A stretch of 64,000 bases of DNA from Parcubacteria group bacterium 21-54-25 (GCA_002255585.1 NCBJ01000005.1:1066-65065); one strand, 5' to 3'. Shown: positions 905-47,891, numbered from the stretch's first letter. Notes: generated by a model from the letters alone, not told the origin. Translations and numbers: made by a program.

Positions 905-913
905 CTTACCACT

Positions 914-2128: not shown

Positions 2129-2501
2129 GTAAATGCTGCCGCTACGTGTGTGTAATGTAGCGACAGCACGGGGGATTATTTCAGTATCTTGCTATACGGC
2201 CGCAACAACCACAGCGAAACAATCACCCATATGACTATGCTGGTGTAGTACACTGCGCAAGACCATATATTCCACACCCAAAGATGCTCAGTTGTGAGCT
2301 TAAGATTGAGCACGAATCCAAAAGCGGCCATCATTTCCACGAAGCCAGTCTCGAACGACTGAAGGGCGGCTCGTTTTCGCTGCGTATGCATCGCAACTCC
2401 TCCGGAGGGTGAGTGACACGAGGAGACCTCGATATGAAACTTCTCACCAATCTATACCGCAACACACAATTCAGCGCAATAGAGTGCGCTATCATAGTGA
2501 C

Positions 2502-4208: not shown

Positions 4209-4819
4209 AAAACAATACGCACTACATGCACGCGCCGCGCGGCTTTACGTTAATTGAAATGTTGGTCACCATCGCTATAACGGCAGTGGTCATGACTGCG
4301 CTCACATTCCTCATTCAGTATTTCTATCGTACGAACACGTACGTTTTTGAGCAGACGGCCGCGGTTGAAAATGCGCGTAATGGAGTGCTGACGGCGATGC
4401 GCTATTTGCGCGAGGCCTCCTATGGTGCGGACGGTTCGTATCCTATTACGAGTGTCGCAACTTCGAGTGTCGAATTTTATGTTGATATCCAGGGGAATGG
4501 CATCGTTGACCGCGTGCACCTGTACCGCTTAGGCACCACGTTATATCAAGGGGTCACGGTGCCGGTGGGTAACCCGCTCTCGTATGTGGGTCAACCAGAA
4601 GCCACAACCACGCTTGCCACCTACGTGCGCAACAGTACCTCGACGCCGATTTTTCGCTATTACGATGCGAAAGGGAACGAACTCACGCCACCAATTACTG
4701 TTGCAAATATCGCATCGGTCAACACTACCGTTACCGTAAACCTAAACCCCGCGCGCGCACCGGAAGATTTCACTCTCTCAGTAGGCGCAACGCTGCGTAA
4801 CTTGCGTGCTGCGCCCTAG
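4205..4819 (+). CDS. Type IV pilin / pseudopilin (prepilin N-terminal methylation motif)
   Basis: HAPRG|FTLIEMLVTIAITAVV canonical GFTLIE motif; ATGA overlap with upstream stop; alternative start ATG 4226 gives 6-aa leader. Confidence 0.75.
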   Translation: MKNNTHYMHAPRGFTLIEMLVTIAITAVVMTALTFLIQYFYRTNTYVFEQTAAVENARNGVLTAMRYLREASYGADGSYPITSVATSSVEFYVDIQGNGIVDRVHLYRLGTTLYQGVTVPVGNPLSYVGQPEATTTLATYVRNSTSTPIFRYYDAKGNELTPPITVANIASVNTTVTVNLNPARAPEDFTLSVGATLRNLRAAP

Positions 4820-17500: not shown

Positions 17501-17663
17501 CTCCGGTGAGCGTCGTGACGACGATGCCTTCCGCGATATTTACAGGCGGCTGTACTTCTTTGGGGATTTGGAGTAAAGAAAAAGAGCCAGCGATGATAAG
17601 CGTGGCGACAAGCACATAGCTAAACTGTCGCCGATCAAGAAAAAAATGCCACAGCCACAACAT
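14559..17663 (-). CDS. RND-family efflux transporter (AcrB/HAE1-like, 12 TM, two large periplasmic loops)
   Basis: 1034 aa, AcrB-type N-terminus MLWLWHFFLDRRQFSYVLVATLIIAG, duplicated TM bundles. Confidence 0.85.
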   Translation of the reverse strand: MLWLWHFFLDRRQFSYVLVATLIIAGSFSLLQIPKEVQPPVNIAEGIVVTTLTGASATDMETLVTNKLEDQISGISNIDTMTSTSRDSVSTITVQFDANANIDQSIQNLRDAVSKAVPNLPADASTPAVTKVSFSNTPVLIASVAAPVPPLLLSETGQTVSDALKRVSGVSDVNVAGVPDRQVDVIVNKNNLAAYGLTLADVIGAIQTANAPIPVGAISTNGVSYTVNFKGGITDPATINNVVVASKNGAAVYVRDVAQVINGLAPATTYSRLSLGGKPAQNAITFSVYKQSSASTQGVASAVKDALQSLQKTTLAGFTVYVSPATDMSVQVGKQLGDLAKTGVETVALVLLVLLITIGWREAVVAAISIPLSFLIAFIGLYMTGNSLNFISLFALILAVGILVDSGIVVTEAIHARMRGNGGALAAARQALADYAWPLIAGTMATVAVFVPLFFISGIVGKFIAGIPYTLIFVLTASIFVSLGLVPLLAIVLSKKHTNAFEEKQEYYTARITAWYKNMLRRILTHRHTQKIFLLLLAGLFAVSISLPLLGVVQTVFLPQNNQDFVFISITKPYGTTLAVTNRAVEQVEAVLYKDPEVYSFQTTVGQGSALAGGALANAASGANIANITVNLPPGHPYTSTYVVNDLQKRLASITDATVQVLQVTGGPPGGAPVQIEFLGNNLNDIITAADNAKHLLATIPGVTNLTSSTQDNGTEFDFTIDRAKAAARGVSTLAVAQTLRSAINGTKAISITQPNQTMDVVVKMNLNAGGTNPSHTASTTLGTLKNLTVYGTQGPVLLGSILSATLAQNNASIVHKDKVRMETVSAYPSSNTTASAIVSAFQKKISSLSLPPGVSVSYGGDTKSINQSFSQMFVALIAGLVLMFMILIVAFNSFRYTFYLISIVPLSLIGVLDGLALTGQPISFSSLLGVIALGGVIINHAIILMDSMIRHLRATPEAAPIDVVVDSAATRLRPIVLTTITTVIGMIPLSLTNATWGPLAFSIMFGLAFAIVLTLVLVPVLFYRAQLRKQRRA

Positions 17664-17666
17664 AGT

Positions 17667-19274
17667 TTAGGGGGTGCCAACAATGACCGACTGGCCGCTT
17701 GAAAGCCCGCGCGCGTCAATCACAATACGCAAAGAAGCGCTCACGTCTGGCTGAAGAGCCGCCATCCCATCGGCAATGTCTTGAATCGTAACCGGATGCG
17801 CGACGAGCGCGCTCGAACTGCTCACCGTAAAGATTTCCGCTCCCGCCGGTGTTATTTTTATCGCGGTGAGAGGAACAAAAAGAAGCGGGCCGCTGTATGT
17901 TGAAGTAACTCGATAAGAAAGTACAACGGGTACGGTTTCTCCATCGGTAAGCGTTTGTGGGGAACCAATGAGACCTACCCTGACTTCAATTTTGTTTGTC
18001 AGGGGGTCGCGCGCTGGCGCGATAAAGGTTATGACACCTGGGAAAGAGTCATTTATGATAGCCCTATCGCCCACGGCCAGTTTCGCGGCGTCGGTGGCGG
18101 AAACGGCCGTTTTGATATACAGAGCATGCGGATTTGAAATAACCGCAACAGGGGAAAACGTTGGTACGTAGTCACCAAGCGTGATGGGTAAACTGACGAT
18201 TGTTCCGCTAACAGGGCTTCGAACAATCGTTTTTTCAAGTGCTGCACGTGCGGCGTCATAGCCGCCCTGCGCTTGCTTTACTTGCGCCTTTGCAAGAGCG
18301 ATGGCACCGGCCGTGCCGCCTGTCGCTACGTTTTGTGCCGCTTGTGTTCCTGAAATAGCGTTGTCATACGCACTCTTTGCCGCAATAAGACCGGAAAGGG
18401 CGGCGTTCACTTCACTACGGCCTGCAGAAACAGATGCAGCGTAGCCCGCAAGGGTACTGGCAGACACGCTTGCGCTCGGCTGGGTTTCATTGATAGCAGC
18501 GGTAAGGTTTCCAAGAAATTGTGTAGCAAAATTCGCTGCAGTGATCACGTCCGTGCCGTGCGCGTCGAGTGTTGAGCTTGCGGTATCTTGCACCTCGGGA
18601 CGAATCGTCGCAAATATCGTTTGAAGCTGCCTTCGCTCTTCTTGCAACAGATTTATAAGTTTATTATCGGGTACGATAAGCGTTAGTTGTGCGGAAATTG
18701 TGCGAGGATTGGAGAAGAGCACGTCTGCTTTCGTGTGTATCGCGTCGTCAAGCGCGGCATAGGTACTCTGGAGCGCATTTGCAAAGGCGTTTTGTGCGTT
18801 ATTCTGCACACTCGTGCTTTGCACAACGGAAATATGGGACCCCGTTGCTGATGTGCCTTCAGCATTTGCAACGCCAACCTGCGCTGCTTCGTACGCGCCC
18901 TGCGCCTGCAAGACGACCGCCTGTTGGGAGCTATTTTCAAAGGAGGCAATGATTTCACCTGCGGAAACATGGTCACCAAGGGCGTGTGGAAGAGAAACAA
19001 TCTCGCCTGCCGTTTGCGAGAGCACGGTTGCCTGATTGAGTGACGTTACCGTGCCGATGACCGGAAGCGAACTTGTCGCAGATGAAAAACTCGCAATAGG
19101 AGCAACGGTTACCTGCACGGCGTTAGAAAGAGACGTATCGCCTGCTGCTGGTGTCGTGCGTGCGGTGTACGCGTGTATCCCCCCGCCAAGTGCGACAAGA
19201 AGAACAAGACCTCCAAAAAACGACCACAGCGGCGCGCGTGCGATAACGTTACGAAACGGTGTCAGTAGAGACAT
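17667..19274 (-). CDS. Efflux periplasmic adaptor (membrane fusion protein, HlyD/AcrA family)
   Basis: N-terminal TM anchor, long Ala/Gln-rich coiled-coil hairpin, biotinyl-lipoyl and beta-barrel segments; 3-bp gap to RND gene. Confidence 0.7.
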   Translation of the reverse strand: MSLLTPFRNVIARAPLWSFFGGLVLLVALGGGIHAYTARTTPAAGDTSLSNAVQVTVAPIASFSSATSSLPVIGTVTSLNQATVLSQTAGEIVSLPHALGDHVSAGEIIASFENSSQQAVVLQAQGAYEAAQVGVANAEGTSATGSHISVVQSTSVQNNAQNAFANALQSTYAALDDAIHTKADVLFSNPRTISAQLTLIVPDNKLINLLQEERRQLQTIFATIRPEVQDTASSTLDAHGTDVITAANFATQFLGNLTAAINETQPSASVSASTLAGYAASVSAGRSEVNAALSGLIAAKSAYDNAISGTQAAQNVATGGTAGAIALAKAQVKQAQGGYDAARAALEKTIVRSPVSGTIVSLPITLGDYVPTFSPVAVISNPHALYIKTAVSATDAAKLAVGDRAIINDSFPGVITFIAPARDPLTNKIEVRVGLIGSPQTLTDGETVPVVLSYRVTSTYSGPLLFVPLTAIKITPAGAEIFTVSSSSALVAHPVTIQDIADGMAALQPDVSASLRIVIDARGLSSGQSVIVGTP

Positions 19275-27270: not shown

Positions 27271-30200
27271 ATGAAGAAAAGCTCGCTTCTACTTCTATCT
27301 GTTCTCACTACGCGCACGGCTCGCATCGTCGCGCTATCCCTTTCTGTCTCCGCCATCGCCATGGGCGGATTTTTTATTAGCCAGGCGTATGCATCATCAA
27401 CAGTGAACGTTATAACGTTCGATAAACCCATTAGCGGAAGCTATGTGCGCGGTACAACTGCACTTGCTTGGCAGTTCACCCAGACGGTATTTTCCAGTAC
27501 GGCTAATCTGACATACTCAAGCAACTTCTCGTCTTGGCAGAATAATGTCATTGGATCATCGATCGCGACGACAACACTTAATTATGATTGGCCGACAGTA
27601 GACATTCCAAATGGCACATACGAAGTTCGTTTAGAGGATAGTCTAAATAATAGCGGTACTTCTGCAACGTTTAATATAGACAACACGCCCCCCACAACAA
27701 CGCTCGCGACAACGACGTCCCCAGACCCGACAACGGGTTGGTACAACAACACAAGCGGATACACGCCGCCCCAAATCACACTCACCTGCACCGACAACTT
27801 GAGCGGCTGCTTAGAAATTGTGCAGAATTGGTACAACGCGACCTCAAGTGCGCTTGTCGCGTCCGCGACAACAACTGGTGCGACTGCAACGATAGACCCG
27901 AGTTCCATCCCGCAAGGCGACAACATTCTGGTCTACTACTCAGAGGACAACGCGGTTGATAAACATGGTGTGCACAACGTCGAGAAAGCGCATCAGGCAG
28001 AGTTCAAAGTAGACACCCAAGCCCCAAGCATCTCTTCCTACACACTCAACGGCAAGGCCGCTGACGCCTATCTCAATCCGAATCTCCCCAACGCCTCAAC
28101 GACGATCACCCTTACCGCAAACGAGCCGGTTGATTGGTCTTCTATACAAATGGTCAACGCTAGTGGAAGCTCGGTAAAAACGTTTACCGTCAGCTCAACT
28201 TATGACGGGACGAATTCCGCAACGGTAACTTGGGATGGTAAGACTGCCACCAGCACTGCTTCTGAAGGTATATACACCATCAAGGCGCATATTATCGATC
28301 TACATGGGAATGATGTTAAAAATATTTCTCTCACACTGTACACCATTACGATTGACACAACGCCGCCAACCCTCACCCTTTCTTCTCCCGTGGCGAATAC
28401 CGTGTACGAGAGCAAAACGGCCAACGGTAACACAACAGCAAGCACGACCGCTCTTGATTTCACCGCCTCTGACGCCAACCCGCTCACGTACACTTATTCT
28501 ATTGACGGCCACGCGACCACGAGTCCAGCGACGGCTCAAAATGGCGTGCCTACGACCGCCGCTCTTTCCGGTTCCGGCCTCACCGACGGGCAGCACACAC
28601 TCGTCGTGACGGTGACCGATGGCGCGGGTAATAGCGTCTCCTCGGCGCCTGTCTCGTTTGTTTTTGACAACAACAAAACGCTCACCGTGAGCAATCAAGC
28701 AAGCGACAACGCCGACTTCAGCTCTATCGGCGCTGCGGTCGCGGCTTCTGACGCGGCAGGGCTCTCGGGCGAGGCAATCAGTGTCTATAAAGGCACTGGT
28801 TCGTACGCCGAAAACGTCACGCTTGATAACCCATTCACGCTTGAAAGTCAGAGCTCTTCTAACGAAGCAGTAATTAAGGGCACGGTAACGATTCCTTCCA
28901 CGGGAAGCGGTACCACCGTGCAGAACCTCTCATTTACGAACCCAGGTGCGAGCACGGCACTCGTTATTAGCGGCGCAAGTAATGTAAGGGTCGCTAGCAG
29001 TACGTTTAACGGTATCGGTACTGGTACTGCAACGGGGAACATTCAAGCAATAGACGTAAATAGTAGCGGAGGTACTTCAATGTCGGATATCACCATCTCT
29101 GGTAACACAATTACAAATGTTGGGAATAACAGCAACGGTAGTTCAAAAGGCATCTACATTGGCGACTCGACCGGCTCAAACACGATCTCGAACGTGACAA
29201 TTGATGGGAATCAAATCTCAAGCATAACTGCCGATAATTCGAACAAAGGCGCCTATGGTGTTCTGGTGAATCATGCAACTTCGGTCACGGGCGCAACAAC
29301 CGGACTACTCATTCAAGACAACACCATCTCGGGACTCAATGGCCTGTGGGCACACGCAATTGGTCTTGAAGGCAACACGCCGAGCGCAGTCGTGACAGGG
29401 AACATCATCAGTGGTCTCACTGATAACAAAGATGGTACCGACGACGTGGGTGTTATGTTGCAAGACGATGGTGGCGTGTCGACGGTCACTATATCTAAAA
29501 ACCAATTCGCGTCTGACATCATCGGCGTAGGAAACGCGACGACCACTTTGACCGCGACCACAACCGCTACGGGTAACTGGTGGGGGAGTATCCAAGGTCC
29601 GAAAACTTCTGCATACGCCACGATTAGTAATCCTTATGGAGATGGTGCTTCTGTGTACGGTCCGGTCTCTTATACACCGTGGTGCACCGACTCGTCATGT
29701 TCGTCGACTGGTAGCGCGCCAACGGCAGTTGTAACTAATCCTCCCCATAATCCAACAAATGTTACAAGTCCTCGTTTTACCGTTGGCTCCGCCACTTCTT
29801 CAGCCAGTACGGTTGTGTATTACAAATATCAGCTTGACGGGTATCCGTGGAGTGCAGCGACCTCAACGAGCGTTGCCATCGCAACATCAAGTCTTGCCGA
29901 CGGCTCACACACACTGAACGTCCTTGGCCGCGACCAGGCAGGCAACTGGCAAACGACGCCGACCACGTACACGTGGACGATTAATACGACAGCACCAGTC
30001 CTCAAGGAAGTCACACCAATTACGACACCGACCGCAAGCACGACGGTGTCGTACGTGTTCAACACAACCAAGCCAGGCAGCCTTGCTTACGCAGGCAGCT
30101 GCAACAACGGCTCGCTCAGAAGTGTGAGCGCCGAAGGTAACGCAACGACGACCTTTAGTTCGCTTTCTGATGGTCTGTACAACTCGTGCACCATTACCGA

Positions 30201-32265
30201 GACGGATAACGCAGGGAACACGAGTAACGTGCTTACTATCGCGCCCTTTATCATTGACACGACACCGCCTGTTATTAACGTGGGGCCGGCTATCATCGCG
30301 AGCACTACCGTAACCGAAAACGCAACCGCCACAGACGCGCTCTCGGGTGTCGCCTCCACCACATGGACGCAAGTAGCTGGCCCGGGCACGGTTACCTTCG
30401 GCTCGCTGCATGCGACAAGCACAACGCTTACGGCAAGCATCGACGGTCTCTACACGCTCCAACTTGCCGCAACCGACAAGGCGGGCAATACGAGCACGGC
30501 AACGCTGAGCTTCACCTGGGATACCGTACCCCCCACAATTACCGCTCCGGCAAACATCACGAAAGAGGCAACGGGATCTTTGACGCCGGTTACTCTTGGC
30601 ACGCCCACGGTCTCTGACAACCTATCTACCACAACCGGTTCAATAAAGGTTACGAATGACACGCCGTCTGCATTTCCGGTTGGTACCACGACGGTCACCT
30701 GGACGGCAACGGACGCGGCAGGCAACAGTGCGAGCACGACGCAGGAAGTGGGTATCATAGACACAATACCGCCAACTATCTCCGGCACACCTGCAAATAT
30801 TACTGCCGAGGCAACGTCATCTCTCGGTGCGTACGTGAGCTGGACGAGCCCGACCGCGACCGACGTCGTTGATGGAACCGATACGGTAAGCTGTCTTCCA
30901 GCATCTGGCTCGCAGTTCAATCTCGGCACGACGACCGTTTCTTGTAGCGCGACCGACCACGCGGGCAACACAGCGTCAACAACCTTTAAGGTGGCGGTGC
31001 GCGACACGACACCGCCCATCATCGCGTCGCACGCTGACATTACCGTCACGGCCGATCAGCTCGGCGGCAGTAAAGTGACGTACACCGCGCCTAACTCGAC
31101 CGACGCAGTTGATGGCACGGTGGCGGCAACGTGTGCACCGGCTTCCGGCACGCTCTTTCCGGTAAACGCGACCACGACCGTGACCTGCACCAAGACTGAC
31201 GCACACGGCAATGTCGCAACACCGACCACCTTCACGGTGACGGTCAATCCAGGTCCGCTCGTGCAGCTCGGTATTACCGCTGCGCCAACAAACCCCACCA
31301 CTGCAAATGCAAGCACCATTACCGTTAGCGGCCAAGACCAGTACGGCAACACGGTGCCGAGCGACAACTCAACAATCGCCGTTCTTTCCACCGATGGTGG
31401 CGGGACATTGGGCACGACGCTCTTGACGCTCGTGAACGGTGCGTCAACAACCGAGCTCACGAGCACACAGCCGGGCACCGTGCACGTGAACGCCGCAAGT
31501 AGCCCACTCACACCAGCACAAACGACCGTGACATTCACGGGCGCGACGGTGCCGGACACCACGCCGCCAATTATCTCAAGCATACAGTCAACAAACATTG
31601 GCACGAGCACAGTGACGATAACGTGGCTCACAAACGAGAACGCGACGTCCCAGGTGGAGTACGGTACGACGTCAGGCTACGGTACTTCAACTGCCGTCGA
31701 CTCGACACTCACCTCTTCCCACAGCGTGACGCTCACCGGCCTCACACCAAACACGACGTATCACTTCCGCGTTAAATCAGCCGACGCATCGAACAATCTC
31801 GCAACCTCGGTCGACAACACGTTCACGACGGCAGTCGACAACAATACTGCGGTACTCGCCGTAAACGGTATCGACGCGACAAAGACCTACGCCATCGCCG
31901 ACGACACCTTTGGCAATGGCTGGGCGTGGACCTTCCACGTGACCGTTCCGACGACTGAACAGTATCTCTCGATGAAGTTCAACGATTTCCTCGGTGCGCC
32001 AAGCGGCACTATTCCGGTCGCGGGTAACGTGCGTTTCTACTCACTGCAATCATCTGACGCAAACGCGACGACGAGCGCAATTACGATTGCCGGCCCCGGT
32101 GCCTACAGCGCGCCAATGCACCTCACGGGCGACCTGGCACCAGGCACGGCTGGACGACAGGTAGATATTGTGGTAGAAATGCGTGTGCCGACCGGCACTA
32201 CAGGGGGCTCCTACTCGACCAGCTATGGCATCCAATCGACCAGCACGCCGCCGGTAATTCCTTAA
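27271..32265 (+). CDS. Giant secreted surface protein (1664 aa): signal peptide, right-handed beta-helix repeats, three HYR domains, Big_2-like and Fn3 domains
   Basis: MKKSSLLLLSVL...AYASS signal; NVTIDGNQISSITADNSN beta-helix repeats; three ~80-aa D-x-T-PP-I / DxVDG / C-PASGSxF / TTTVTCTxTD HYR units (30531-31260); VEYGTTSGYG...TTYHFRV Fn3. Confidence 0.8.
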   Translation: MKKSSLLLLSVLTTRTARIVALSLSVSAIAMGGFFISQAYASSTVNVITFDKPISGSYVRGTTALAWQFTQTVFSSTANLTYSSNFSSWQNNVIGSSIATTTLNYDWPTVDIPNGTYEVRLEDSLNNSGTSATFNIDNTPPTTTLATTTSPDPTTGWYNNTSGYTPPQITLTCTDNLSGCLEIVQNWYNATSSALVASATTTGATATIDPSSIPQGDNILVYYSEDNAVDKHGVHNVEKAHQAEFKVDTQAPSISSYTLNGKAADAYLNPNLPNASTTITLTANEPVDWSSIQMVNASGSSVKTFTVSSTYDGTNSATVTWDGKTATSTASEGIYTIKAHIIDLHGNDVKNISLTLYTITIDTTPPTLTLSSPVANTVYESKTANGNTTASTTALDFTASDANPLTYTYSIDGHATTSPATAQNGVPTTAALSGSGLTDGQHTLVVTVTDGAGNSVSSAPVSFVFDNNKTLTVSNQASDNADFSSIGAAVAASDAAGLSGEAISVYKGTGSYAENVTLDNPFTLESQSSSNEAVIKGTVTIPSTGSGTTVQNLSFTNPGASTALVISGASNVRVASSTFNGIGTGTATGNIQAIDVNSSGGTSMSDITISGNTITNVGNNSNGSSKGIYIGDSTGSNTISNVTIDGNQISSITADNSNKGAYGVLVNHATSVTGATTGLLIQDNTISGLNGLWAHAIGLEGNTPSAVVTGNIISGLTDNKDGTDDVGVMLQDDGGVSTVTISKNQFASDIIGVGNATTTLTATTTATGNWWGSIQGPKTSAYATISNPYGDGASVYGPVSYTPWCTDSSCSSTGSAPTAVVTNPPHNPTNVTSPRFTVGSATSSASTVVYYKYQLDGYPWSAATSTSVAIATSSLADGSHTLNVLGRDQAGNWQTTPTTYTWTINTTAPVLKEVTPITTPTASTTVSYVFNTTKPGSLAYAGSCNNGSLRSVSAEGNATTTFSSLSDGLYNSCTITETDNAGNTSNVLTIAPFIIDTTPPVINVGPAIIASTTVTENATATDALSGVASTTWTQVAGPGTVTFGSLHATSTTLTASIDGLYTLQLAATDKAGNTSTATLSFTWDTVPPTITAPANITKEATGSLTPVTLGTPTVSDNLSTTTGSIKVTNDTPSAFPVGTTTVTWTATDAAGNSASTTQEVGIIDTIPPTISGTPANITAEATSSLGAYVSWTSPTATDVVDGTDTVSCLPASGSQFNLGTTTVSCSATDHAGNTASTTFKVAVRDTTPPIIASHADITVTADQLGGSKVTYTAPNSTDAVDGTVAATCAPASGTLFPVNATTTVTCTKTDAHGNVATPTTFTVTVNPGPLVQLGITAAPTNPTTANASTITVSGQDQYGNTVPSDNSTIAVLSTDGGGTLGTTLLTLVNGASTTELTSTQPGTVHVNAASSPLTPAQTTVTFTGATVPDTTPPIISSIQSTNIGTSTVTITWLTNENATSQVEYGTTSGYGTSTAVDSTLTSSHSVTLTGLTPNTTYHFRVKSADASNNLATSVDNTFTTAVDNNTAVLAVNGIDATKTYAIADDTFGNGWAWTFHVTVPTTEQYLSMKFNDFLGAPSGTIPVAGNVRFYSLQSSDANATTSAITIAGPGAYSAPMHLTGDLAPGTAGRQVDIVVEMRVPTGTTGGSYSTSYGIQSTSTPPVIP

Positions 32266-32272
32266 TAGATAT

Positions 32273-32914
32273 ATGAAAACACTCACTACACTCATCACGA
32301 GCGTTGCGTTTCTGGCGCTGGCAGCTCCGGCAATGGCGTCTACGGTGAGTGGAACGCTATCGACGGGTGTCTCGACGGGTATTTCAGGTATCGTGGACGC
32401 GGGTGTCTCTGCAAGCGTTCCGCCTGGAACGTATGCAAGTACGCAGAGCGTCGCGCTCTCGGCGAGCGGTTCTGACAACATCTACTACACGGTGGATGGT
32501 TCGTCACCAGCATGTGCTCCCACGACGGGAACGCTGTACGCTGGAGCGATTACCGTTTCTAGCTCAGAAACCATTCGCGCGGCTGCGTGTTTCGGCACCG
32601 TCGCGTCGCCAGTAGGCGTCTTCGCGTACGGCATTAATATTCCGACGCCCTCTTCTTCTGGGGGTGGAAGTAGCGGTGGCGGAGGAGGCGGTGGTGGGAG
32701 CAGTGGCGGCGGAAGCGTCATTACAACGCCGACAACTGCTACCACAACGCTTGTAGGCGACATTAATGGCGACGGGCAGGTGAACGTGCTGGACTTTAAC
32801 ACGCTCTTGGTGCAGTGGGGAGAGACAGGCAGCAACCTTTCTGCCGATCTCAACCACGATGGCGTTGTTGACGTGCTCGATTTCAATTTACTCATGGCTC
32901 ACTGGACAGCTTAA
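32273..32914 (+). CDS. Secreted protein with Fn3-like CHB_HEX_C-type domain, Gly/Ser linker and C-terminal dockerin module
   Basis: Signal MKTLTTLITSVAFLALAAPAMAS; NIYYTVDGSSPA; GGGSSGGGGGGGGSSGGGS; dockerin repeats DINGDGQVNVLDFNTLL and DLNHDGVVDVLDFNLLM. Confidence 0.7.
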   Translation: MKTLTTLITSVAFLALAAPAMASTVSGTLSTGVSTGISGIVDAGVSASVPPGTYASTQSVALSASGSDNIYYTVDGSSPACAPTTGTLYAGAITVSSSETIRAAACFGTVASPVGVFAYGINIPTPSSSGGGSSGGGGGGGGSSGGGSVITTPTTATTTLVGDINGDGQVNVLDFNTLLVQWGETGSNLSADLNHDGVVDVLDFNLLMAHWTA

Positions 32915-32920
32915 TTACTC

Positions 32921-33709
32921 ATGACTCGTATGAACCGAATATTCTCAGTAGGGGCGCTCGTGCTTTCCTTTGTATTACCAGCCGCCGCGTTTGCGGCGTC
33001 AGTCGGGCTTTCTCCGGCATCGGTTTCAGTGAAGCCGGGCGAGGTATTCACCGTAACAGTGCTTGCAAACCCTGCGGGTGCGCATGTGTACACGGTGCGC
33101 GCAAATATTTCTTTTAACCCGTCACTAGTGTCGGTAACCAACTTTGCGTTCGCACCGAAATGGATCCAGCTTACGCAACCTGGCTATGACGCGATCGACA
33201 ATACCAATGGTTCGCTCATAAAAACTGCCGGTTACCCAGGCGGAATCACGAACCCAACGGTGCTTGGCACTGCGACTTTCACCGCGAAGAAAGCGGGTAC
33301 GGCGGCTATTACGGCAACCAACCAGTCGCTCTTGCTTGATGCAAACGGTAAAAACGCGCTCTCTGGCACACAGGGTCTGGTGAGTGTGGTAGTAACTGTA
33401 CCGCCCACCCCCACACCAGCTCCGAAGCCAAAACAAACTGCCGCAACGACCCAGACGGCCTCGGTTGTGCGTGCTGTCGCGTTTGGTGCGACCGCAACGG
33501 CATCGGCGTCTGCCAGCACCACTGCAGCTTCCACTAGTGTGGCAACTGCCCCCGCCGCGACATCTGCGCCCGCCACAGCCGCGACCAGCAGCAGCACCTC
33601 CGGCGGAAGCTCGTCGCTACCTATTGTGATAGTCGTTATTGTTATTGCACTTCTCCTTGCTCTCTGGTGGATGAATAGCAAGCGCACTCCCAAAACCCCG
33701 TCCGCGTAA
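32921..33709 (+). CDS. Cell-surface anchored protein with N-terminal cohesin-like beta-sandwich domain, Thr/Ala-rich stalk and C-terminal TM anchor
   Basis: Signal peptide; GEVFTVTVLANPAGAHVYTVRANISFNPSLVSV...TATFTAKKAGTAAITA cohesin-like pattern; C-terminal LPIVIVVIVIALLLALWWMNSKR. Confidence 0.6.
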   Translation: MTRMNRIFSVGALVLSFVLPAAAFAASVGLSPASVSVKPGEVFTVTVLANPAGAHVYTVRANISFNPSLVSVTNFAFAPKWIQLTQPGYDAIDNTNGSLIKTAGYPGGITNPTVLGTATFTAKKAGTAAITATNQSLLLDANGKNALSGTQGLVSVVVTVPPTPTPAPKPKQTAATTQTASVVRAVAFGATATASASASTTAASTSVATAPAATSAPATAATSSSTSGGSSSLPIVIVVIVIALLLALWWMNSKRTPKTPSA

Positions 33710-37196: not shown

Positions 37197-37466
37197 TCAA
37201 TGTATTGTTGGACTGTCCGATTGAAAATCGGGCTCTTCAAACCCAAGCGCTCGGAGCGAATCAGCGAGTATGTATTCGGTTTTTGATGCCCAAATGCTTC
37301 CATCGTCAAACATAATGAAATTCCAAGCGCACCCATCATCCTCGTCCAAAAAACAAACAAAGAAATAGCCACTCTCTTCGGGGAAGAGGTGACGAAACGC
37401 TTCGAACGCCCGCTCCTTCAACTGTGTGAAAGAGTAGATTTCGAGTACGAGTTTCTCCTCACTCAT
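37197..37466 (-). CDS. Small hypothetical protein (89 aa)
   Basis: GGGGGAG SD 6 nt before ATG 37466; ORF track starts at TTG 37472. Confidence 0.4.
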
Positions 37467-37674
37467 GGGCAACTCCCCCAGTTCCTACTGTCTCACTGCA
37501 TATTACGTGCGTATTACCAATACCGCAAACGCACGATCCGCGGCACCGACGCATGAGAGAAATAAGATTGCCACGCAATCGAGCGGATTACGGCACAAAG
37601 ATTGCATTTTGCTGGATTTGAGCTATTCTACAAGCAACGCTTTCGGCGGGTTTTTATTTTTATTATCACGCTCT

Positions 37675-39883: not shown

Positions 39884-40792
39884 TTATGACGCAATACGCA
39901 CGCGCTCAAGCTCGGGGAGCAGTTTCTCATAAAGCCGCTCAATCAGCTGCAGAAGGACAAGCACCTCGTCGCGATTTTGTTTGAGTACCCCAAGCTTAAA
40001 TACATACGTTTTCACGCCGTAGCACTCGAAGCCAAATTCTTTGTATCCTTCCATAAGCATTGCCATAGCATCGGGTTGCAGTATTTCAAGTGCCTCTATC
40101 TCCTCGCCTTGCGGCACATACACGGAAAATTCTTTATTGAAATCACCCTCCACGGTGAGCGGCTTCGTATCTGACGGTTTCCAAACAAGCGCTGGGTCGA
40201 TCGTCATAAGGGACGTATGCGGTCGGATGAGAAGATGAGGCAGTTGATGCTGTACCTCAATCTCACCGACAATGTATTGTATTTGTTCTTGATACCTGCC
40301 CAAGCCAACGATGAACGAGTAGTTATACAGCCGTAACGCAGCATCTTTGTATGTTCCAGAAAGCACATGCGAAAGTGCTCTGTCATGTCCGCGCTCAAAA
40401 AAGCTGCCTGATACTGTTCCGGTAGATGCAGAGGGCGCATACGTAAACCCAAGCGAGTCAGCTAATTCGGTGAAAAACAATTTCTGCATTCTGAAATACA
40501 CACGCAAATATAAGACGATGGGAATGAGTAGCGGAAGAAGAAAGAGCAGTAACAGAATAACTGTCTCGGTGTTCGTATCTGCTATGGCGGCTAGATCATT
40601 TGCCGAAGCTACCCACCAAGCCGCGCTTTCAAGCAGAAGCATAGCTGCTACAGCCATGAATGTGTGCATGGGGCGCCGCTGCAACAAATAGCGCCAAGTG
40701 CTGCGCTGTACGCTAAGCACGGGCTCGTCCTGTTTGCGGGCGCCTGTATTTTTTGGTGGCGACGCGGACGGGACGCGAGACGACATATCCAT
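39884..40792 (-). CDS. Hypothetical membrane protein (302 aa, two TM near N-terminus)
   Basis: AAAGGA 3 nt before ATG 40792; inserted between fusA and tuf. Confidence 0.5.
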   Translation of the reverse strand: MDMSSRVPSASPPKNTGARKQDEPVLSVQRSTWRYLLQRRPMHTFMAVAAMLLLESAAWWVASANDLAAIADTNTETVILLLLFLLPLLIPIVLYLRVYFRMQKLFFTELADSLGFTYAPSASTGTVSGSFFERGHDRALSHVLSGTYKDAALRLYNYSFIVGLGRYQEQIQYIVGEIEVQHQLPHLLIRPHTSLMTIDPALVWKPSDTKPLTVEGDFNKEFSVYVPQGEEIEALEILQPDAMAMLMEGYKEFGFECYGVKTYVFKLGVLKQNRDEVLVLLQLIERLYEKLLPELERVRIAS

Positions 40793-40917: not shown

Positions 40918-43900
40918 ATGAAACAAATTTCTCGCGCGCTCGTGCTCCCTGTGTTGTTCCTTGCTTTTGCCACCCCCGCCTTTGCGGCGACCAACACCCC
41001 GACCGATTACGACATCATGAGTGCCTGTTTTGGCCAAACGCCCACAGCCGGTAGTGTTTGTGCCAAGGCAGATTTCGATGGCGATGGCATCGTTAATATC
41101 GCTGACCTAGCAGCATTCAAGAGTGCCATAAAATACGATATCAATGGTGACGGGGCCGTAGATCTGTCCCCCAACGGCGCGGACGCCGCTGCGCTACAGG
41201 CCTGTTTTGGCCAAACGCCCACGGCCGGTAGTCCGTGTGCTAAAGCCGATCTAAACGGTGACGGGATGGTGAATTTTGCTGACCTAAGCGCGTTTAAGGC
41301 CGCAAGCAAATACGACTTAAACGGCGACGGGGAAATAACGTTCAATAACACGAGCGCGCCGGTCATCACCAATATTGTTAACGACGCAACGCCGAACGTG
41401 AACGTGACGATTTCTGGCACGAACTTCGATCCGGCCTCGAACACCGTTACTATTGGTGGAACAAGTAGGAACTTGCCATCTTTCAACGGGACGAATATCA
41501 ACTTCCAGATGACGGACTTCGGTCTTAGTGCTGGCAGTTATTCAGTACAGGTCACCACTTCAGCTGGTGCAAGTAATGTATATCAGGCGACCATCACGAA
41601 TTCCCCGGCGAGCACGGGTCTCAAAATAGCGCTTTTGCCGACGTCGCCGAACGGCACCACCCTCTTTCAGGGTCAGAGTGGCGCTGATCTCGCGGACTTC
41701 GTGTTCTCGAATCCAAGCTCAGTTCCGATTACTGTGACCAGTCTTGCTTTCAACCGTATCGGCGCTTCGAGCGACTCGGCGATGACAAACGTGTACCTCT
41801 CGCACAGCGGTACGCGCGTGACGGGGTCTAGTGGAGTTTATAATTCCCAATTTTCGTTCACAGATGGGGCGGGCCTCTTCACGGTCCCGGCGGGGGGTAC
41901 GTATTCGGTTTCGGTTCTTTCCGACATCGCGAACAGCGCCTCATCTGGTCAGCAGATCGGCGTGGCACTCGCTTCCGTTGGTTCTTTTGGCGCTATTGAT
42001 CCCTCGGTCAACTTCCCAATTAATGCCGGTTATCAAACAATTTCAACCCAAACACCTGCCCCCGCCATCACCTCCGTCTCGCCTACGAGTGGTTCTACAA
42101 ACACAGCCGTCACTCTCTATGGCACGAACCTTCAAGGGGCCACACAGGTACGGTTCTACAACACAAGCGGACAATTTGTCGCAAGCCAGAACGTTACGTC
42201 CGTTTCCTCTGACGGCACACACGTAACGTTCATTATCTCAGGTGTCTTCATGGGTATGGAGGGCGCAGGTTCATATCAAATAAATGTGCAATCGCCGAAT
42301 GGAACAACCAACAGTGAACCGTTTACCGTGACGTCGGAATCTATCCCCACCATCACCTCCACCAGCGCCAAGGCCGCAGGCACGTTCCAGGCGGATGCTG
42401 GCGGCGGTTTGCAGGTTTTCGGCACTGGTTTTTCCTCCGGTGCAACGGCGTATATCAACGGGGCACCGGTGACGACCACCTATGTCTCAAGTACTGAACT
42501 GGGGGTCAACGTTCCAACCAGCCTCTCTGCTGGCGCGAGCTATCCGATGTATGTTACTGGCGGAGGCGGCACGAGCAACACGGTGCAAATACAAATCTTG
42601 AGCAATCTTGCCAATTACCCGCACATCACCTCCACCAGCGCCAAGGCCGCAGGCACGTTCCAGGCGGATGCTGGTGGTGTCCTACAAATTTCTGGCACGA
42701 ACTTTTCCGGCGCAACAGCGGTATACATTGGCGGAGAACAGGCCACGATTACGAGTAACACCGGGACCTCGATCTTGATCGACGTCCCGAGCAACCTTTC
42801 CGCTGGCGTGAGCTACCCGCTCTTCGTTACCGGTCCTACCACCGGTGTGAGCAACACGGTGCAAATACAGATTTTGAGCGTCTTAAACTCGACCCCCACC
42901 ATCACCTTTGCGCAAGTGCCCGCCGAGAACAACAACGTGCTCCATCCAGGCGAACCAGCACGAGTATTCGGTGCGAACCTTGACCAAGCGGGGTCCATTC
43001 CAGTTGAAGTACGATTTATCGCTGCGGGCGCGACAGTCTACTCCGCTGATGTGCCAGGCACCGTGAACGCCGATGGTACGCAAGTGTCCTTTACGGTTCC
43101 ATCCTTATCGAACGGGACCTACTCACTCCTCGTCTATGCCAGAACATCGTTCGGCACGAATCAGATTTCGGTATCTGTCACAAGTCCGGCTACAGGAAGG
43201 ATCATCCCGTCAACCACGTTTATGAATTTTCACGTCGTACAAGGCCAGAGCAATCCACCGCCGGTCCCTATGACGCTTACGAACGCAGGTTCGGTACCGG
43301 TGGACTACACGCTCAACGTACCTAACCAACCAGCGTGGTTGAACACGAGCTATAGCACCAACACCCTGACGCTTGCCGCGGGCGGTGTCGTGGAGCTTGA
43401 GGCGTCAGTGGACGCCACGCAAGTAAATGCGCCGGGCACATACACGGCAACCCTGGTTGTGTCGGGCAATTTTTCAGGCTCACCGCTCAGCATTCCAGTT
43501 ACCCTAACGATTGATGCGGCACAAAACAGCAGTACGCCAACACCTTCAACTAACGAAAATACCCCACCGACCTCAAATACAAATACGCCAGCTGGCCCGT
43601 TCACCCAAAACCTCTGGCGCGGGCAGCATGGGGAAGAAGTGGTACAGCTGCAACAGCTCCTTAATCGCGACCCGAATACGCAAATTGCGGATTCAGGTCC
43701 CGGCTCGCCAGGTGAAGAAAATGGCTACTATGGCTACCTGACGCAGTCCGCAGTGCAAAATTTCCAGTGCAAGTACAACATCGTTTGTTCTGGCTCGCCT
43801 GACGCCACCGGCTATGGCGTGGTGGGGCCGCAGACGCGCGACGAACTGAACATGCTCTATGACCAGCAGGGCAGTAGCGCAGCAGCGGGTGCGCAGGCGA

Positions 43901-44073
43901 CGAACAATGTTGGCAATTCTAGCGGAACGAACGGTGCGCAAACAAACAACACCACAAGCGCATCCTCGCCCGCACCAACCGCCGCCCAGCTACAGACTCA
44001 ACTCCAGCAACTTTTACAACTTGTGCTCCAGCTCCAACAACAGCTTGCGCGGCAGCAGGCCTCCCCTAACTAA
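40918..44073 (+). CDS. Large secreted protein: signal peptide, two tandem dockerin modules, multiple IPT/TIG-like Ig domains, peptidoglycan-binding (PG_binding_1-like) domain, C-terminal Gln/Leu coiled-coil
   Basis: KADFDGDGIVNIADLAAF...DINGDGAVDL and KADLNGDGMVNFADLSAF...DLNGDGEITF; tandem 91-aa ITSTSAKAAGTFQADAGG repeats; NLWRGQHGEEVVQLQQLLNRD...GYYGYLTQSAVQNFQ. Confidence 0.75.
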   Translation: MKQISRALVLPVLFLAFATPAFAATNTPTDYDIMSACFGQTPTAGSVCAKADFDGDGIVNIADLAAFKSAIKYDINGDGAVDLSPNGADAAALQACFGQTPTAGSPCAKADLNGDGMVNFADLSAFKAASKYDLNGDGEITFNNTSAPVITNIVNDATPNVNVTISGTNFDPASNTVTIGGTSRNLPSFNGTNINFQMTDFGLSAGSYSVQVTTSAGASNVYQATITNSPASTGLKIALLPTSPNGTTLFQGQSGADLADFVFSNPSSVPITVTSLAFNRIGASSDSAMTNVYLSHSGTRVTGSSGVYNSQFSFTDGAGLFTVPAGGTYSVSVLSDIANSASSGQQIGVALASVGSFGAIDPSVNFPINAGYQTISTQTPAPAITSVSPTSGSTNTAVTLYGTNLQGATQVRFYNTSGQFVASQNVTSVSSDGTHVTFIISGVFMGMEGAGSYQINVQSPNGTTNSEPFTVTSESIPTITSTSAKAAGTFQADAGGGLQVFGTGFSSGATAYINGAPVTTTYVSSTELGVNVPTSLSAGASYPMYVTGGGGTSNTVQIQILSNLANYPHITSTSAKAAGTFQADAGGVLQISGTNFSGATAVYIGGEQATITSNTGTSILIDVPSNLSAGVSYPLFVTGPTTGVSNTVQIQILSVLNSTPTITFAQVPAENNNVLHPGEPARVFGANLDQAGSIPVEVRFIAAGATVYSADVPGTVNADGTQVSFTVPSLSNGTYSLLVYARTSFGTNQISVSVTSPATGRIIPSTTFMNFHVVQGQSNPPPVPMTLTNAGSVPVDYTLNVPNQPAWLNTSYSTNTLTLAAGGVVELEASVDATQVNAPGTYTATLVVSGNFSGSPLSIPVTLTIDAAQNSSTPTPSTNENTPPTSNTNTPAGPFTQNLWRGQHGEEVVQLQQLLNRDPNTQIADSGPGSPGEENGYYGYLTQSAVQNFQCKYNIVCSGSPDATGYGVVGPQTRDELNMLYDQQGSSAAAGAQATNNVGNSSGTNGAQTNNTTSASSPAPTAAQLQTQLQQLLQLVLQLQQQLARQQASPN

Positions 44074-44206
44074 GCGTAGACGTTGCGTGGGAGAACTGCC
44101 GCGGCGGTTTTGTTGACAGGACGTGTGTCTTGTTTATACACTCAGCGATAGCAGCTCATCGATGGGCTGTGATACAGGATTAGATCTTTTTTGAGGAGAC
44201 CGTCTG

Positions 44207-44512
44207 ATGGAAACGCAAGAAAAAGAACGGCTTACTTTCTGTCGCAGCAACCTTGCAATTCGTGACGATAAGGTTGTTGCCACGACCAATGGATTCTCCA
44301 CCGCATACGAGTTTGATAGCGCGTTCGTTCAGGGGCGTATGGTGCCGTCGACCGTAGACGGCGTGAAAATCGGCAGATTTGGGTCGGACGTTCTAATACA
44401 GCACAATGGAGAGTCCTTCATCACGGACTGGCGTGTGCTTCGGGACGTCGTCATCCTCACCTTAAAAAAAGAGGGATGGAAGTTCATTGACGAGAAGGGA
44501 GATTGGGTCTGA
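44207..44512 (+). CDS. Hypothetical protein (101 aa)
   Basis: GAGGAGA SD 7 nt before ATG; followed by terminator. Confidence 0.5.
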   Translation: METQEKERLTFCRSNLAIRDDKVVATTNGFSTAYEFDSAFVQGRMVPSTVDGVKIGRFGSDVLIQHNGESFITDWRVLRDVVILTLKKEGWKFIDEKGDWV

Positions 44513-44527
44513 CGATATCGGATCACG

Positions 44528-44570
44528 TCCCGCCAAATGGATGCGCGTATGCATTTGGCGGGATTTTTGT
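44528..44570 (+). terminator. Intrinsic terminator
   Basis: TCCCGCCAAATG-loop-CATTTGGCGGGA then TTTTTGTTT. Confidence 0.65.
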
Positions 44571-44737
44571 TTCATTTGCTTGACCTTTTTGTAGTGGTCG
44601 GGTAGTCTTTTTAGTAACGCAATCGTTTACGTGCGGTACATTTTGTATCACACGTAAACGCGGCGGCATTTCCGTCGGCGCACCGCGCGGCGCGTTGGTC
44701 ATTTATTCGGTCTTTATCATTAATTTTTACAAGACAT

Positions 44738-46481: not shown

Positions 46482-46509
46482 TTGACAAAATATATTTTCC
46501 GTGTACTAT
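46482..46509 (+). promoter_or_regulatory. Sigma70-type promoter for inserted lipoprotein gene
   Basis: TTGACA-16 nt-TACTAT. Confidence 0.5.
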
Positions 46510-46580
46510 CTGCACCAGACGTTTTTTGTTATCACAATACAGATCTCAGTATCCAAACGAGTACAACGAGGAGGTGCACC

Positions 46581-47891
46581 GTGAAAGCGACACGAAAGAC
46601 AGTAGTTGCAGTACTTATGGTGGTCTCGGCCCTGTCTCTTGCGGCCTGCAAGAGCAGCGGGAACTCGGTGGCGTCAGCGAGTAGTGGCGGGACCCAAACG
46701 CCCACCACTTCGCCATCGCCATCGCCAACTCCGACCCCGTCTCCAGCGGCAACGTATATTTCTGGTTACATCGTCGGAGGCGCACAGACGGGAGTGACGG
46801 TTACCGCCAGTCCCGGGGGTACCGCTGCAACAACCGGCGCAAGCGGGGCTTACACCCTGTCAAACTTGCCGGACGGCACCTACACAATCACTCCATCTGA
46901 CGGGTCGGGAACCGTGTTCTCGCCGGCCAGCAAGACCGTGACGGTGAATGGTGCCGGTGTGGCGGGTGTAAACTTCACCGCACCAACCCCGCCTCTTACC
47001 ACGGGGGACATTCTTTTCCCGTGCCTCTACGCGGTGTGCGTAGAAAACTTGGCGACGGGGACATCGAATGTGCTGCTGCAGAACCCCAGTGTAACGGCGT
47101 GGCAGCCGCTCACGATTGTTCCCATGCGCGTGGGGATTTCGATTGCCTACGATGGGTCAAATCTCGCTGGCCCTTCCTGGGTGTCGTTTCTTCCGGGCAT
47201 GCCGTCGCCGCCGCGGGTGTTCATGAACGGAGGGAACATGACGCCCAATTGCTCCGCCATCACTGACGGCCGAAGCTTCGACACCGCAAGTGTCTCGGGT
47301 GTTGGCGACATAGCGGTCGTAACAGCCCCCTGCTCGGTCCCAGGAGTAGGGAATAAAACGGACATCTTCATCGTTCAGATGGATGGTTCGGGACACTACG
47401 TTCGTGTCACGTCCGATATGGACATCGAGCGATCGCCTGTTTTTGCCGGTATCAACTTGGCAAAGAGTCAGGTGACAGTGCTCTTTGTGGACACCACCAC
47501 GGGCAACATCATGAAGCAAGTGGTGGACGTCTCTTCAACGAGCACCACGACGCTCGTCGGCGCGCCGACCGTCTTTGCGAAGGACGCAGCTGATGACGAT
47601 CGGGCATTATCGGTGAACCTAGACTACACCAAGGTCGCCTTCGTGCAGAAGGTGAACGGATTGAATCACCTCATGGTAGAGGCGACCGCGGGGGGTCCGG
47701 TGACAGATCTCGGCTTGGGAGACAATCCGTACTGGGATCTCGGGGGAAGCAACCTGATTGAGTACTCGTACAACGGCAAACTGTATGCGGTCAAGCCGGA
47801 CGGTACGGGGCGGGTTGCGATACCTGTTCCTGGCAACTTGTCGGTGGCGTCGGGCCCCGCTTGGGTGGTGTTCGCCCCTCCGGGAGGCTAA
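46581..47891 (+). CDS. Lipoprotein with carboxypeptidase-regulatory-like domain and beta-propeller-like C-terminal region
   Basis: GAGGAGGTG SD then GTG 46581; lipobox LSLAAC; YISGYIVGG...GAYTLSNLPDGTYTITPS; track start 46482 rejected. Confidence 0.6.
   Translation: MKATRKTVVAVLMVVSALSLAACKSSGNSVASASSGGTQTPTTSPSPSPTPTPSPAATYISGYIVGGAQTGVTVTASPGGTAATTGASGAYTLSNLPDGTYTITPSDGSGTVFSPASKTVTVNGAGVAGVNFTAPTPPLTTGDILFPCLYAVCVENLATGTSNVLLQNPSVTAWQPLTIVPMRVGISIAYDGSNLAGPSWVSFLPGMPSPPRVFMNGGNMTPNCSAITDGRSFDTASVSGVGDIAVVTAPCSVPGVGNKTDIFIVQMDGSGHYVRVTSDMDIERSPVFAGINLAKSQVTVLFVDTTTGNIMKQVVDVSSTSTTTLVGAPTVFAKDAADDDRALSVNLDYTKVAFVQKVNGLNHLMVEATAGGPVTDLGLGDNPYWDLGGSNLIEYSYNGKLYAVKPDGTGRVAIPVPGNLSVASGPAWVVFAPPGG

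Follow-up and report, generated by a model that had tools for sequence, protein, structure and literature searches.

The 64,000-nucleotide stretch of DNA analysed here (the window) comes from Parcubacteria group bacterium 21-54-25, an uncultured Kaiserbacteria-like Parcubacterium that belongs to the Candidate Phyla Radiation (CPR) or Patescibacteria. A gene at 40918..44073 on its plus strand encodes a secreted protein of 1051 amino acids (aa). Two tandem dockerin-like modules stand at the mature N-terminus of this protein, immunoglobulin-like (Ig-like) domains fill its middle, and a peptidoglycan-binding domain (PGB) of the PG_binding_1 type, followed by a helix, ends it. The reading favoured here, with moderate confidence, is that of an envelope protein which is anchored in the wall of its own cell and displays an end that docks to cohesin.

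Architecture of the protein and its relatives

The open reading frame (ORF) is a genuine gene and matches the public gene call on a 135-kb contig; its product is identical to P0001, the hypothetical protein B7X04_02310 of Parcubacteria group bacterium 21-54-25. The guanine-plus-cytosine (GC) content of the gene is 54-56%, similar to that of the flanking DNA. Threonine, serine, alanine, glycine and asparagine are abundant in the protein, charged residues are scarce, and the six cysteines fall into three pairs (37/48, 96/107 and 951/957). An earlier description made from the sequence alone (the sequence-only reading) had claimed a secreted protein with a dockerin pair, TIG repeats, a peptidoglycan-binding domain and a terminal Q/L-rich helix. 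All of these domain calls were upheld by profile searches and structure models, and a Sec signal peptide can be read from the sequence (Table 1). The homologue P0056 starts with the same N-terminus.

The duplication at the N-terminus can be seen in the DNA, where 41023-41155 and 41200-41332 share 74% identity at a spacing of 177 nucleotides (nt). The module period is thus 59 aa; the sequence-only reading was right about the duplication and its motifs, and wrong in giving a period of 56 aa and slightly shifted coordinates. Pfam Dockerin_1 (PF00404) is matched in three stretches at 45.4 bits (cutoff 22.9), the best of which, aa 73-127, covers profile positions 2-53 of 57 and straddles the junction of modules 1 and 2. 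The first loops of the two modules, DFDGDGIVNIAD (aa 52-63) and DLNGDGMVNFAD (aa 111-122), are canonical 12-residue calcium loops, each followed by a helix, while the second loops read DINGDGAVDL (from aa 74) and DLNGDGEITF (from aa 133). An AlphaFold2 model of aa 24-148 predicts the three-dimensional fold of a dockerin (predicted local distance difference test, pLDDT, 90.8; predicted template modelling score, pTM, 0.82).

Structural and sequence comparisons with the PDB gave a less sharp picture. Foldseek found no significant match there for the N-terminal modules, and a PDB sequence profile search returned EF-hand proteins and dockerins with similarly weak E-values. In that same search, the helix-linker-loop of a real dockerin (2y3n_B) aligned with the cysteine-containing segment of the module. 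Pfam EF-hand_1 is also above its threshold (28.2 bits against 25.4). The dockerin assignment survives against one to generic EF-hands, which would have undone the claim of the sequence-only reading. A linker of 11 residues, presumed to be stapled by a disulfide, parts the helix from the calcium loop, which makes this an F-hand and not a helix-loop-helix EF-hand.

Sixty such modules were aligned from 16 proteins. Both cysteines are invariant and 10 residues apart in every one of them, and the consensus is Dl.ifk.CF......tg.CaKADFNgDG.VN..DL.LFKsA.kYDLNGDg.VDL. The order within a module is helix, stapled linker, loop, helix, loop. This phase is fixed by the mature N-terminus of the 1051-aa protein and by a 90-aa secreted protein in L085 (5908-6180), the smallest member seen, which has only a signal peptide and one module; both show the ends of the unit. 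The canonical loop-helix order of dockerins is permuted within the stand-alone L085 module, and is restored where two modules meet, which is where the best Pfam match sits. The number of modules per protein is mostly even (2, 4 or 8), and tandem pairs are nearly always the form in which they occur. Taken together, the sequence features suggest that the N-terminal module is a distinct dockerin variant. A metagenome pattern scan with the module alignment retrieved mostly ordinary dockerins, and found the cysteine-type module only in L085 and L086. Several proteins (P0059, P0061, P0075, P0080, P0091 and P0178) are built almost wholly from 4-8 tandem modules of this kind. P0178 additionally has two copies of LTQxQIDSIxxLxxSFGA, a motif found beside PG-binding domains.

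At the other end of the protein, Pfam PG_binding_1 (PF01471) is matched at aa 905-962 with 23.1 bits (cutoff 23.0); its homologues score between 22.6 and 74 bits. In an AlphaFold2 model of aa 891-1051, the globular part has, for the most part, a block-mean pLDDT of 87-97. The linker, rich in S, T and N, is disordered in the model and is followed by a terminal helix predicted at aa 1024-1049 (model residues 132-157; block-mean pLDDT about 74-90). The model confirms, as a predicted structure, the helical-bundle PG_binding_1 fold, with SleC, 1lbu (a Zn DD-peptidase), phage endolysins and L,D-transpeptidases as its comparators. A PDB sequence search with the C-terminal part gave spurious matches to designed WD40-like 'Tako8' proteins, and weak ones to SleB and 1lbu.

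The PGB variant recurs in 157 of 205 collected proteins, which range from 136 to 2319 aa. It is found at the N-terminus only (72 proteins), at the C-terminus only (52), at both ends (18) or with an extra internal copy (15), and some of the proteins that carry it are about 140 aa long and have no other domain. Given its terminal position in proteins of such varied size, it behaves like a general-purpose terminal module. The tail of PGB, linker and helix occurs in 25 of the 81 collected proteins with a C-terminal PGB, including P0053 and P0054; in P0042 and P0055, the helix stands before the PGB. Among Paceibacteria surface proteins, the PGB-plus-helix unit is very widespread as a terminal module.

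The middle of the protein is made of Ig-like and beta-rich domains. Pfam TIG (PF01833) is matched in four stretches (59.3 bits; cutoff 20.9), of which the search gives coordinates only for the best, aa 148-220. The NCBIfam profile CoaZ_rpt_PGGG (NF058597) reaches 77.8 bits (cutoff 30), with its best stretch at aa 476-560, and the underlying DNA repeat (42351-42475 and 42624-42748) has a period of 273 nt and 75% identity. DUF4469 is matched with 33.9 bits at aa 670-747 and FixG_C weakly; P0057 contains three tandem copies of the domain at aa 753-868. The domain called X here has no Pfam, NCBIfam or PDB sequence match.

A strongly conserved Paceibacterota family of about 1114-1151 aa (P0003-P0037; hereafter the ~1130-aa family) combines an N-terminal helix motif, LTSAQIQSILSLLSSFGA, with PG_binding_1 and many beta-rich repeats. 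Its first repeat shares 62-64% identity with aa 235-391 of the 1051-aa protein, and the likeness of this repeat to domain X suggests that surface-protein genes exchange domains. One member, in L083 (6001-9393), adjoins TPR and Wzy_C genes and lies close to rplJ-rplL. As a guess, the PG-binding-domain proteins that were reported to be highly expressed in Paceibacteria (PMC10936435) may be members of this family.

The whole architecture is not confined to this genome. Word-indexed searches with the isolated ends had retrieved only two generic TSP3/dockerin proteins for the N-terminus and three small proteins for the C-terminus, and had suggested that the architecture was unique; this was overturned by an exhaustive phmmer search, which returned 6451 relatives at E <= 1e-3. 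The most informative is P0056 (1349 aa, E 9e-155), which has the same overall architecture and, to judge from the GC content of its contig (42%), comes from a different organism. Identity to the 1051-aa protein is 56% at the N-terminus and 71% at the C-terminus, and falls to 37% in the rearranged middle. Conserved ends and a variable middle suggest that two functional ends are linked by a spacer. Pairs of cysteine-type modules and PG_binding_1 share one polypeptide in at least nine others (P0002, P0056, P0058, P0065, P0067, P0069, P0128, P0189 and P0203), a count that is biased because the retrieval query itself holds both domains. Dockerin_1 passes its threshold also in P0056, P0058, P0065, P0067, P0189 and P0059. 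The simplest arrangement is that of P0067, which has a signal peptide, a PGB and four modules and nothing more.

Candidate docking partner, cell wall and rival readings

A block of three surface-protein genes (27271-33709) lies 7 kb upstream of the 1051-aa gene, just before rpsL. The last of them encodes a membrane-tethered protein of 262 aa with a cohesin domain, the candidate partner. Pfam Cohesin (PF00963) is matched at 33.5 bits (cutoff 24.1) over profile positions 3-135 of 139, and the public gene call also annotates this ORF as Cohesin; a PDB sequence search with it gave no match. The gene starts 6 nt after that of a 213-aa protein with a canonical dockerin. Thus, alongside a membrane-tethered cohesin, the genome has genes for at least two proteins that carry dockerins. 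Among the scanned ORFs of the window, there is only one single-cohesin protein, and neither a scaffoldin nor a glycoside hydrolase catalytic domain; the multi-cohesin scaffoldin and dockerin-bearing glycoside hydrolases that define a cellulosome are absent from these ORFs. A membrane-tethered cohesin together with dockerin proteins, and no glycoside hydrolase, indicates a non-cellulosomal setting.

In the favoured reading, Sec export and cleavage of the signal peptide would yield a mature protein with two conserved ends and a variable spacer. The PG_binding_1 domain, with its S/T-rich linker and Q/L-rich helix, would hold on non-covalently to the peptidoglycan of the cell itself, and the helix would probably add oligomerisation or avidity. 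The stalk would consist of Ig-like domains (TIG, CoaZ and domain X), about 720 residues in all. At its far end, the mature N-terminus would present a rigid pair of Ca2+-binding, disulfide-stapled dockerin-like modules as a site for protein docking, the most likely partner being a cohesin-domain protein such as the membrane-tethered one 7 kb upstream. On this view, the 1051-aa protein would belong, as one component, to a small non-cellulosomal cohesin-dockerin system that orders surface proteins. Its gene, probably a transcription unit of its own, lies in the fusA-tuf spacer, which serves this lineage as a recurrent landing site for accessory genes.

The sequence-only reading had assumed an organism that probably lacks a thick wall, and had proposed binding to the wall of a host. 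This premise fails because peptidoglycan synthesis belongs to the Parcubacteria core (PMC4508563). The frequent terminal placement of the PGB, including in the proteins of about 140 aa that have no other domain, also agrees better with a generic anchor in the cell's own wall than with a ligand specific for a host. Methanogenic archaea are not known to have bacterial peptidoglycan (murein). Paceibacteria that parasitise methanogenic archaea highly express extracellular proteins with PG-binding domains, for which a role in host attachment has been proposed (PMC10936435); since these hosts have no murein, the PG-binding domains of those proteins cannot be ligands of the host wall. Core peptidoglycan synthesis, the ubiquity of the terminal PGB and the murein-less hosts thus together support a self-anchor.

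Several observations weigh against the favoured reading. Neither second loop has an acidic residue at position 12 (the loops at aa 74-85 and 133-144 have P or N there), and the order of elements within a module is not the textbook phase of a dockerin. The PG_binding_1 match exceeds its cutoff by a margin of 0.1 bit, and the recurrence of the two domains in one polypeptide is subject to the retrieval bias mentioned above. The 64-kb window contains no peptidoglycan synthesis genes. Lastly, directly beside the cohesin gene lies that of a canonical dockerin protein, a partner that suggests itself more readily, and there is no cohesin gene within 8-10 kb of the cysteine-module genes P0038, P0080 and P0067. 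The contig of P0056 is too short to reveal its gene context. In view of the three other loci, the cohesin partnership is an inference.

The same parts could be assembled in the opposite direction, with the dockerins plugged into the cell's own membrane-tethered cohesin, the stalk pointing outward and a distal PGB gripping the peptidoglycan of a host, so that the protein would be an adhesin between episymbiont and host. The cohesin, on its linker of about 80 residues and C-terminal transmembrane helix, would make a plausible cell-proximal socket, and the protein is conserved at both of its termini, which suits this arrangement too. There is also a precedent in dDoc_0689, one of the rare double dockerins, which anchors its protein to the cell-bound cohesin ScaD (PMC12484212), and the proposed attachment role of Paceibacteria PG-binding-domain proteins (PMC10936435) can be cited in its favour. 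This topology is nonetheless unlikely. Its wall-less premise is contradicted for Parcubacteria in general (PMC4508563), and the hosts in the attachment study are archaea of the kind discussed above. The PGB is a generic terminal module in more than 150 related proteins, tiny single-domain ones included, and its presence at both ends of P0065 and P0189 fits poorly with a single distal tip. The boldest form of this idea, in which a CPR episymbiont uses a stapled, phase-shifted dockerin and a membrane cohesin as a plug-in host-attachment apparatus that bridges to the peptidoglycan of a host bacterium, is improbable to a greater degree.

A different objection is that the modules do not bind cohesins at all, and are a lineage-specific repeat, Ca2+-binding and disulfide-stapled, with a structural or glycan-binding role in a wall-associated structural, S-layer-like or adhesin protein. 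Dockerin-like modules without a known cohesin partner are widespread beyond cellulosomes. The EF-hand_1 match, the alike PDB E-values for EF-hands and dockerins and the outcome of the Foldseek search would all be accommodated, as would the arrays of 4-8 modules without any other domain (P0059, P0061 and P0075) and the cohesin-free surroundings of P0038, P0080 and P0067. The F-hand geometry, with its 11-residue stapled linker between helix and calcium loop, and a cohesin gene within the same 64-kb window argue in the other direction, and this explanation is considered doubtful. Very unlikely is a tether between membrane and wall, in which the dockerins would sit on the membrane cohesin and the PGB on the wall of the same cell, so that the envelope is stabilised. 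The minimal relative P0067, with little more than PGB and modules, and the membrane-tethered cohesin encoded in the window would suit such a device, but the Ig-like spacer of about 720 residues far exceeds what a tether needs. This proposal, made from sequence, overlaps with the wall-anchored reading and differs from it in geometry alone.

Among known systems, the closest are the type I dockerins, exemplified by dDoc_0689 of Clostridium thermocellum (PDB 8x39). As there, two small calcium-binding modules follow each other, with DxNxDGxVNxxD loops and helices behind them; the protein passes the Dockerin_1 threshold, and a cohesin gene is present in the genome. Unlike type I dockerins, the 59-aa modules carry the invariant cysteine pair, 10 residues apart, that would staple the linker between helix and loop. 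Their phase is helix-linker-loop-helix-loop, in contrast to the textbook loop-helix-linker-loop-helix; the second loop does not have the acidic position 12, and the modules are located at the mature N-terminus. In contrast to cellulosomal dockerins, they belong to a CPR organism, and the scanned ORFs of the window include neither a scaffoldin nor a glycoside hydrolase; this is not a cellulosome. Non-cellulosomal cohesin-dockerin systems, such as the NagH/NagJ toxin complex of Clostridium perfringens (PDB 2ozn), are also comparable; here, one candidate partner would be membrane-tethered and the other would have a wall-binding domain.

The PG_binding_1 domains of wall enzymes (the SleB N-domain 6tci, CtpB 4c2c, 1lbu, endolysins and L,D-transpeptidases) differ from that of the 1051-aa protein in several respects. 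The latter is not joined to a catalytic domain; it has an insertion of about 18 residues, RDPNTQIADSGPGSPGEEN, and a cysteine pair in FQCK...VCSG; and it is coupled to the S/T linker and Q/L-rich helix, which in relatives may stand on either side. The ~1130-aa family and the proteins of PMC10936435 also resemble the 1051-aa protein, being from the same clade, secreted, and composed of a PG-binding domain with Ig-like or beta-rich repeats, with attachment as a proposed role. The ~1130-aa family has its PGB at the N-terminus and no dockerin modules, whereas the 1051-aa protein has a C-terminal PGB and dockerins.

Each domain type is known already, and so is the host-attachment proposal for Paceibacteria PG-binding-domain proteins (PMC10936435). 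The literature searched contained no description uniting dockerin, cohesin and Parcubacteria, and we could not find in it the cysteine-stapled, phase-shifted tandem module, its recurrent fusion to PG_binding_1, or a cohesin-dockerin gene set in a Parcubacterium. In a cultivated Saccharibacterium, a dockerin-domain protein is essential (PMC10633639). Partner attachment and envelope organisation are poorly understood in CPR/Patescibacteria, and very few Parcubacteria have been cultivated. The locus offers testable parts, namely a family of dockerin-like modules with an invariant cysteine pair, their recurrent coupling to a PG-binding anchor, and a membrane cohesin encoded by the same genome. Should the modules prove to bind cohesins, the reach of cohesin-dockerin assembly would extend from cellulosomes to the surfaces of ultra-small symbionts; if they are only structural calcium-binding repeats, this is an ordinary lineage-specific surface protein.

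Table 1. Features of the 1051-aa gene, the upstream surface-protein block and the fusA-tuf spacer (positions in the window).
Feature	Position	Strand	Basis or description
1664-aa HYR/Big_13/fn3 surface protein	27271-32265		
213-aa secreted protein, CHB_HEX_C_1 and canonical C-terminal dockerin	32273..32914	+	Dockerin_1 31.1 bits, CHB_HEX_C_1 44.4 bits
262-aa candidate partner: signal peptide, cohesin, ~80-aa T/A/S/P-rich linker, C-terminal transmembrane helix, short basic tail	32921..33709	+	Pfam
302-aa membrane-protein ORF	39884..40792	-	public call; weak DUF3137; convergent with fusA, divergent from the 1051-aa gene
Sec signal peptide, aa 1-24 (MKQISRALVLPVLFLAFATPAFA, cleavage before A)	40918..40989	+	positively charged n-region, then a hydrophobic core; cleavage motif AFA-A
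Cys-stapled dockerin-like module 1, aa 30-88	41005..41181	+	helix with C37, linker, C48, calcium loop DFDGDGIVNIAD, helix, second loop DINGDG
Cys-stapled dockerin-like module 2, aa 89-147	41182..41358	+	as module 1; C96, C107; loops DLNGDGMVNFAD and DLNGDGEITF
TIG/IPT Ig-like domain 1, aa 148-234	41359..41619	+	Pfam TIG; 52% identity to a segment of P0044
Beta-rich domain X, aa 235-378	41620..42051	+	62-64% identity to first repeat of the ~1130-aa family
TIG Ig-like domain 2, aa 379-474	42052..42339	+	boundaries by eye; covered by many exhaustive-search matches
Two CoaZ_rpt_PGGG Ig-like repeats, aa 475-565 and 566-656	42340..42885	+	NF058597 and DNA repeat
Two further Ig-like domains, aa 657-752 (DUF4469/TIG-like) and aa 753-868 (FixG_C-like)	42886..43521	+	Pfam
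PG_binding_1-type domain (PGB), aa 896-984	43603..43869	+	conserved pair C951, C957
Q/L-rich amphipathic helix, aa 1023-1051, after S/T/N-rich linker aa 985-1022	43984..44070	+	AlphaFold2
101-aa ORF downstream of the 1051-aa gene	44207..44512	+	public call; strong Shine-Dalgarno
Terminator-like hairpin, two 18-nt arms, 89% complementary, no loop, then T-run TTTTTGTTT	44528..44572	+	consensus-type; 165 nt before tuf

The fusA-tuf spacer and the ribosomal gene cluster

The gene lies between fusA, which runs from about 37675 (approximate true start) to 39822, and tuf, which begins at 44738. In the sequence-only reading it was a single insertion at an unusual place in the str operon. The location stands; the spacer of 4.9 kb holds three ORFs and not one. 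The str operon is not contiguous here, in that fusA is not immediately followed by tuf. The gene order is rpsL, rpsG, two intervening genes (PEBP and a 581-aa membrane protein), fusA, the 302-aa ORF on the minus strand, the 1051-aa gene, the 101-aa ORF, tuf, rpsJ, a gene for a secreted protein of 436/469 aa, rplC-D-W-B and three further genes, two of them with bPH_2; rpsC, rpsE and secY come further on. The 101-aa ORF has no Pfam or NCBIfam family match. The mechanically called fusA ORF opens 70 codons early (37465-37674); the conserved start MNRDYPLEK at 37675 agrees with the public call, and the upstream extension is probably not translated.

How unusual this position is depends on the comparison. 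EF-Tu was scanned with one genome per species, which gave 80 loci, the nearest of them mostly annotated as Kaiserbacteria and 86% identical in EF-Tu. Among the 24 loci with EF-Tu identity of at least 72% and fusA upstream, the median fusA-tuf spacer is 1010 bp; it is longer than 1 kb in 12 of them and longer than 2.5 kb in five. At five further close loci, fusA is missing over a distance of at least 5 kb. The median spacer in more distant bacteria is 252 bp. The claim of an unusual position therefore holds for bacteria generally, but not among close relatives, half of which have a spacer above 1 kb. The cargo of the spacer varies by lineage and includes secreted proteins, two-component genes, and proteins of 1111 and 1547 aa.

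At the four loci with 86% EF-Tu identity, the spacer is 0.4-1.0 kb long and a homologue of the 1051-aa gene is absent from it. Across the 80 tuf loci (about 21 kb per genome), no homologue was found of the 1051-, 302- or 101-aa ORFs, the cohesin or the 213-aa protein, the sole exception being a PGB-only match in L036. The gene is thus a lineage-specific insertion into a recurrently used site, and not a singular event. No direct or inverted repeats were found to flank the insertion, and the 64-kb window has no tRNA or Rfam element. As recurrent insertion sites in this clade, fusA-tuf and the other junctions of the ribosomal cluster are relevant to gene-order annotation and to checks of binning.

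The divergent gene upstream and the terminator-like hairpins after the 1051-aa gene (a weak one, 44086-44103) and after the 101-aa ORF (a strong one with a T-run, 44528-44572) suggest that the 1051-aa gene is outside the str transcript. On these consensus features, it looks transcriptionally autonomous. A promoter-like site precedes the 101-aa ORF (44113-44142). Directly upstream of the 1051-aa gene there is no consensus sigma-70 site, in a scan that is uninformative for a CPR organism. Both this strong hairpin and another one (44624-44660, 17-nt arms, 3-nt loop) are near-perfect and lie in the 225 nt that separate the 101-aa ORF from tuf; the second might act on tuf as a leader or regulatory element.

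The interruption is one of several. The str/S10/spc cluster (33832-64000) is broken at five junctions, namely rpsG-fusA, fusA-tuf, rpsJ-rplC, rplB-rpsS and before rpsL, and the genes that break it code mainly for secreted or membrane proteins. Between rpsJ and rplC (46482-47891), the 436/469-aa secreted and possibly lipoprotein-like protein has a weak CarboxypepD_reg match; its gene is a further lineage-specific surface gene within the cluster. In relatives, this junction is longer than 800 bp at 7 of 35 close loci.

Other genes in the window

The regions 8-6308 and 12601-14112 encode components of type IV pili (a T2SSE ATPase, a T2SSF platform, an N-methyl pilin and a 599-aa CarboxypepD_reg protein) as well as ComEC. 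This is the usual uptake and attachment toolkit of the CPR, and it shares the window with the surface proteins described above. On the minus strand at 14559-19274, an RND-type transporter of the AcrB/AcrD/AcrF family (600 bits) adjoins a HlyD-family membrane-fusion protein; a pair resembling a tripartite pump is somewhat unexpected in a small CPR genome.

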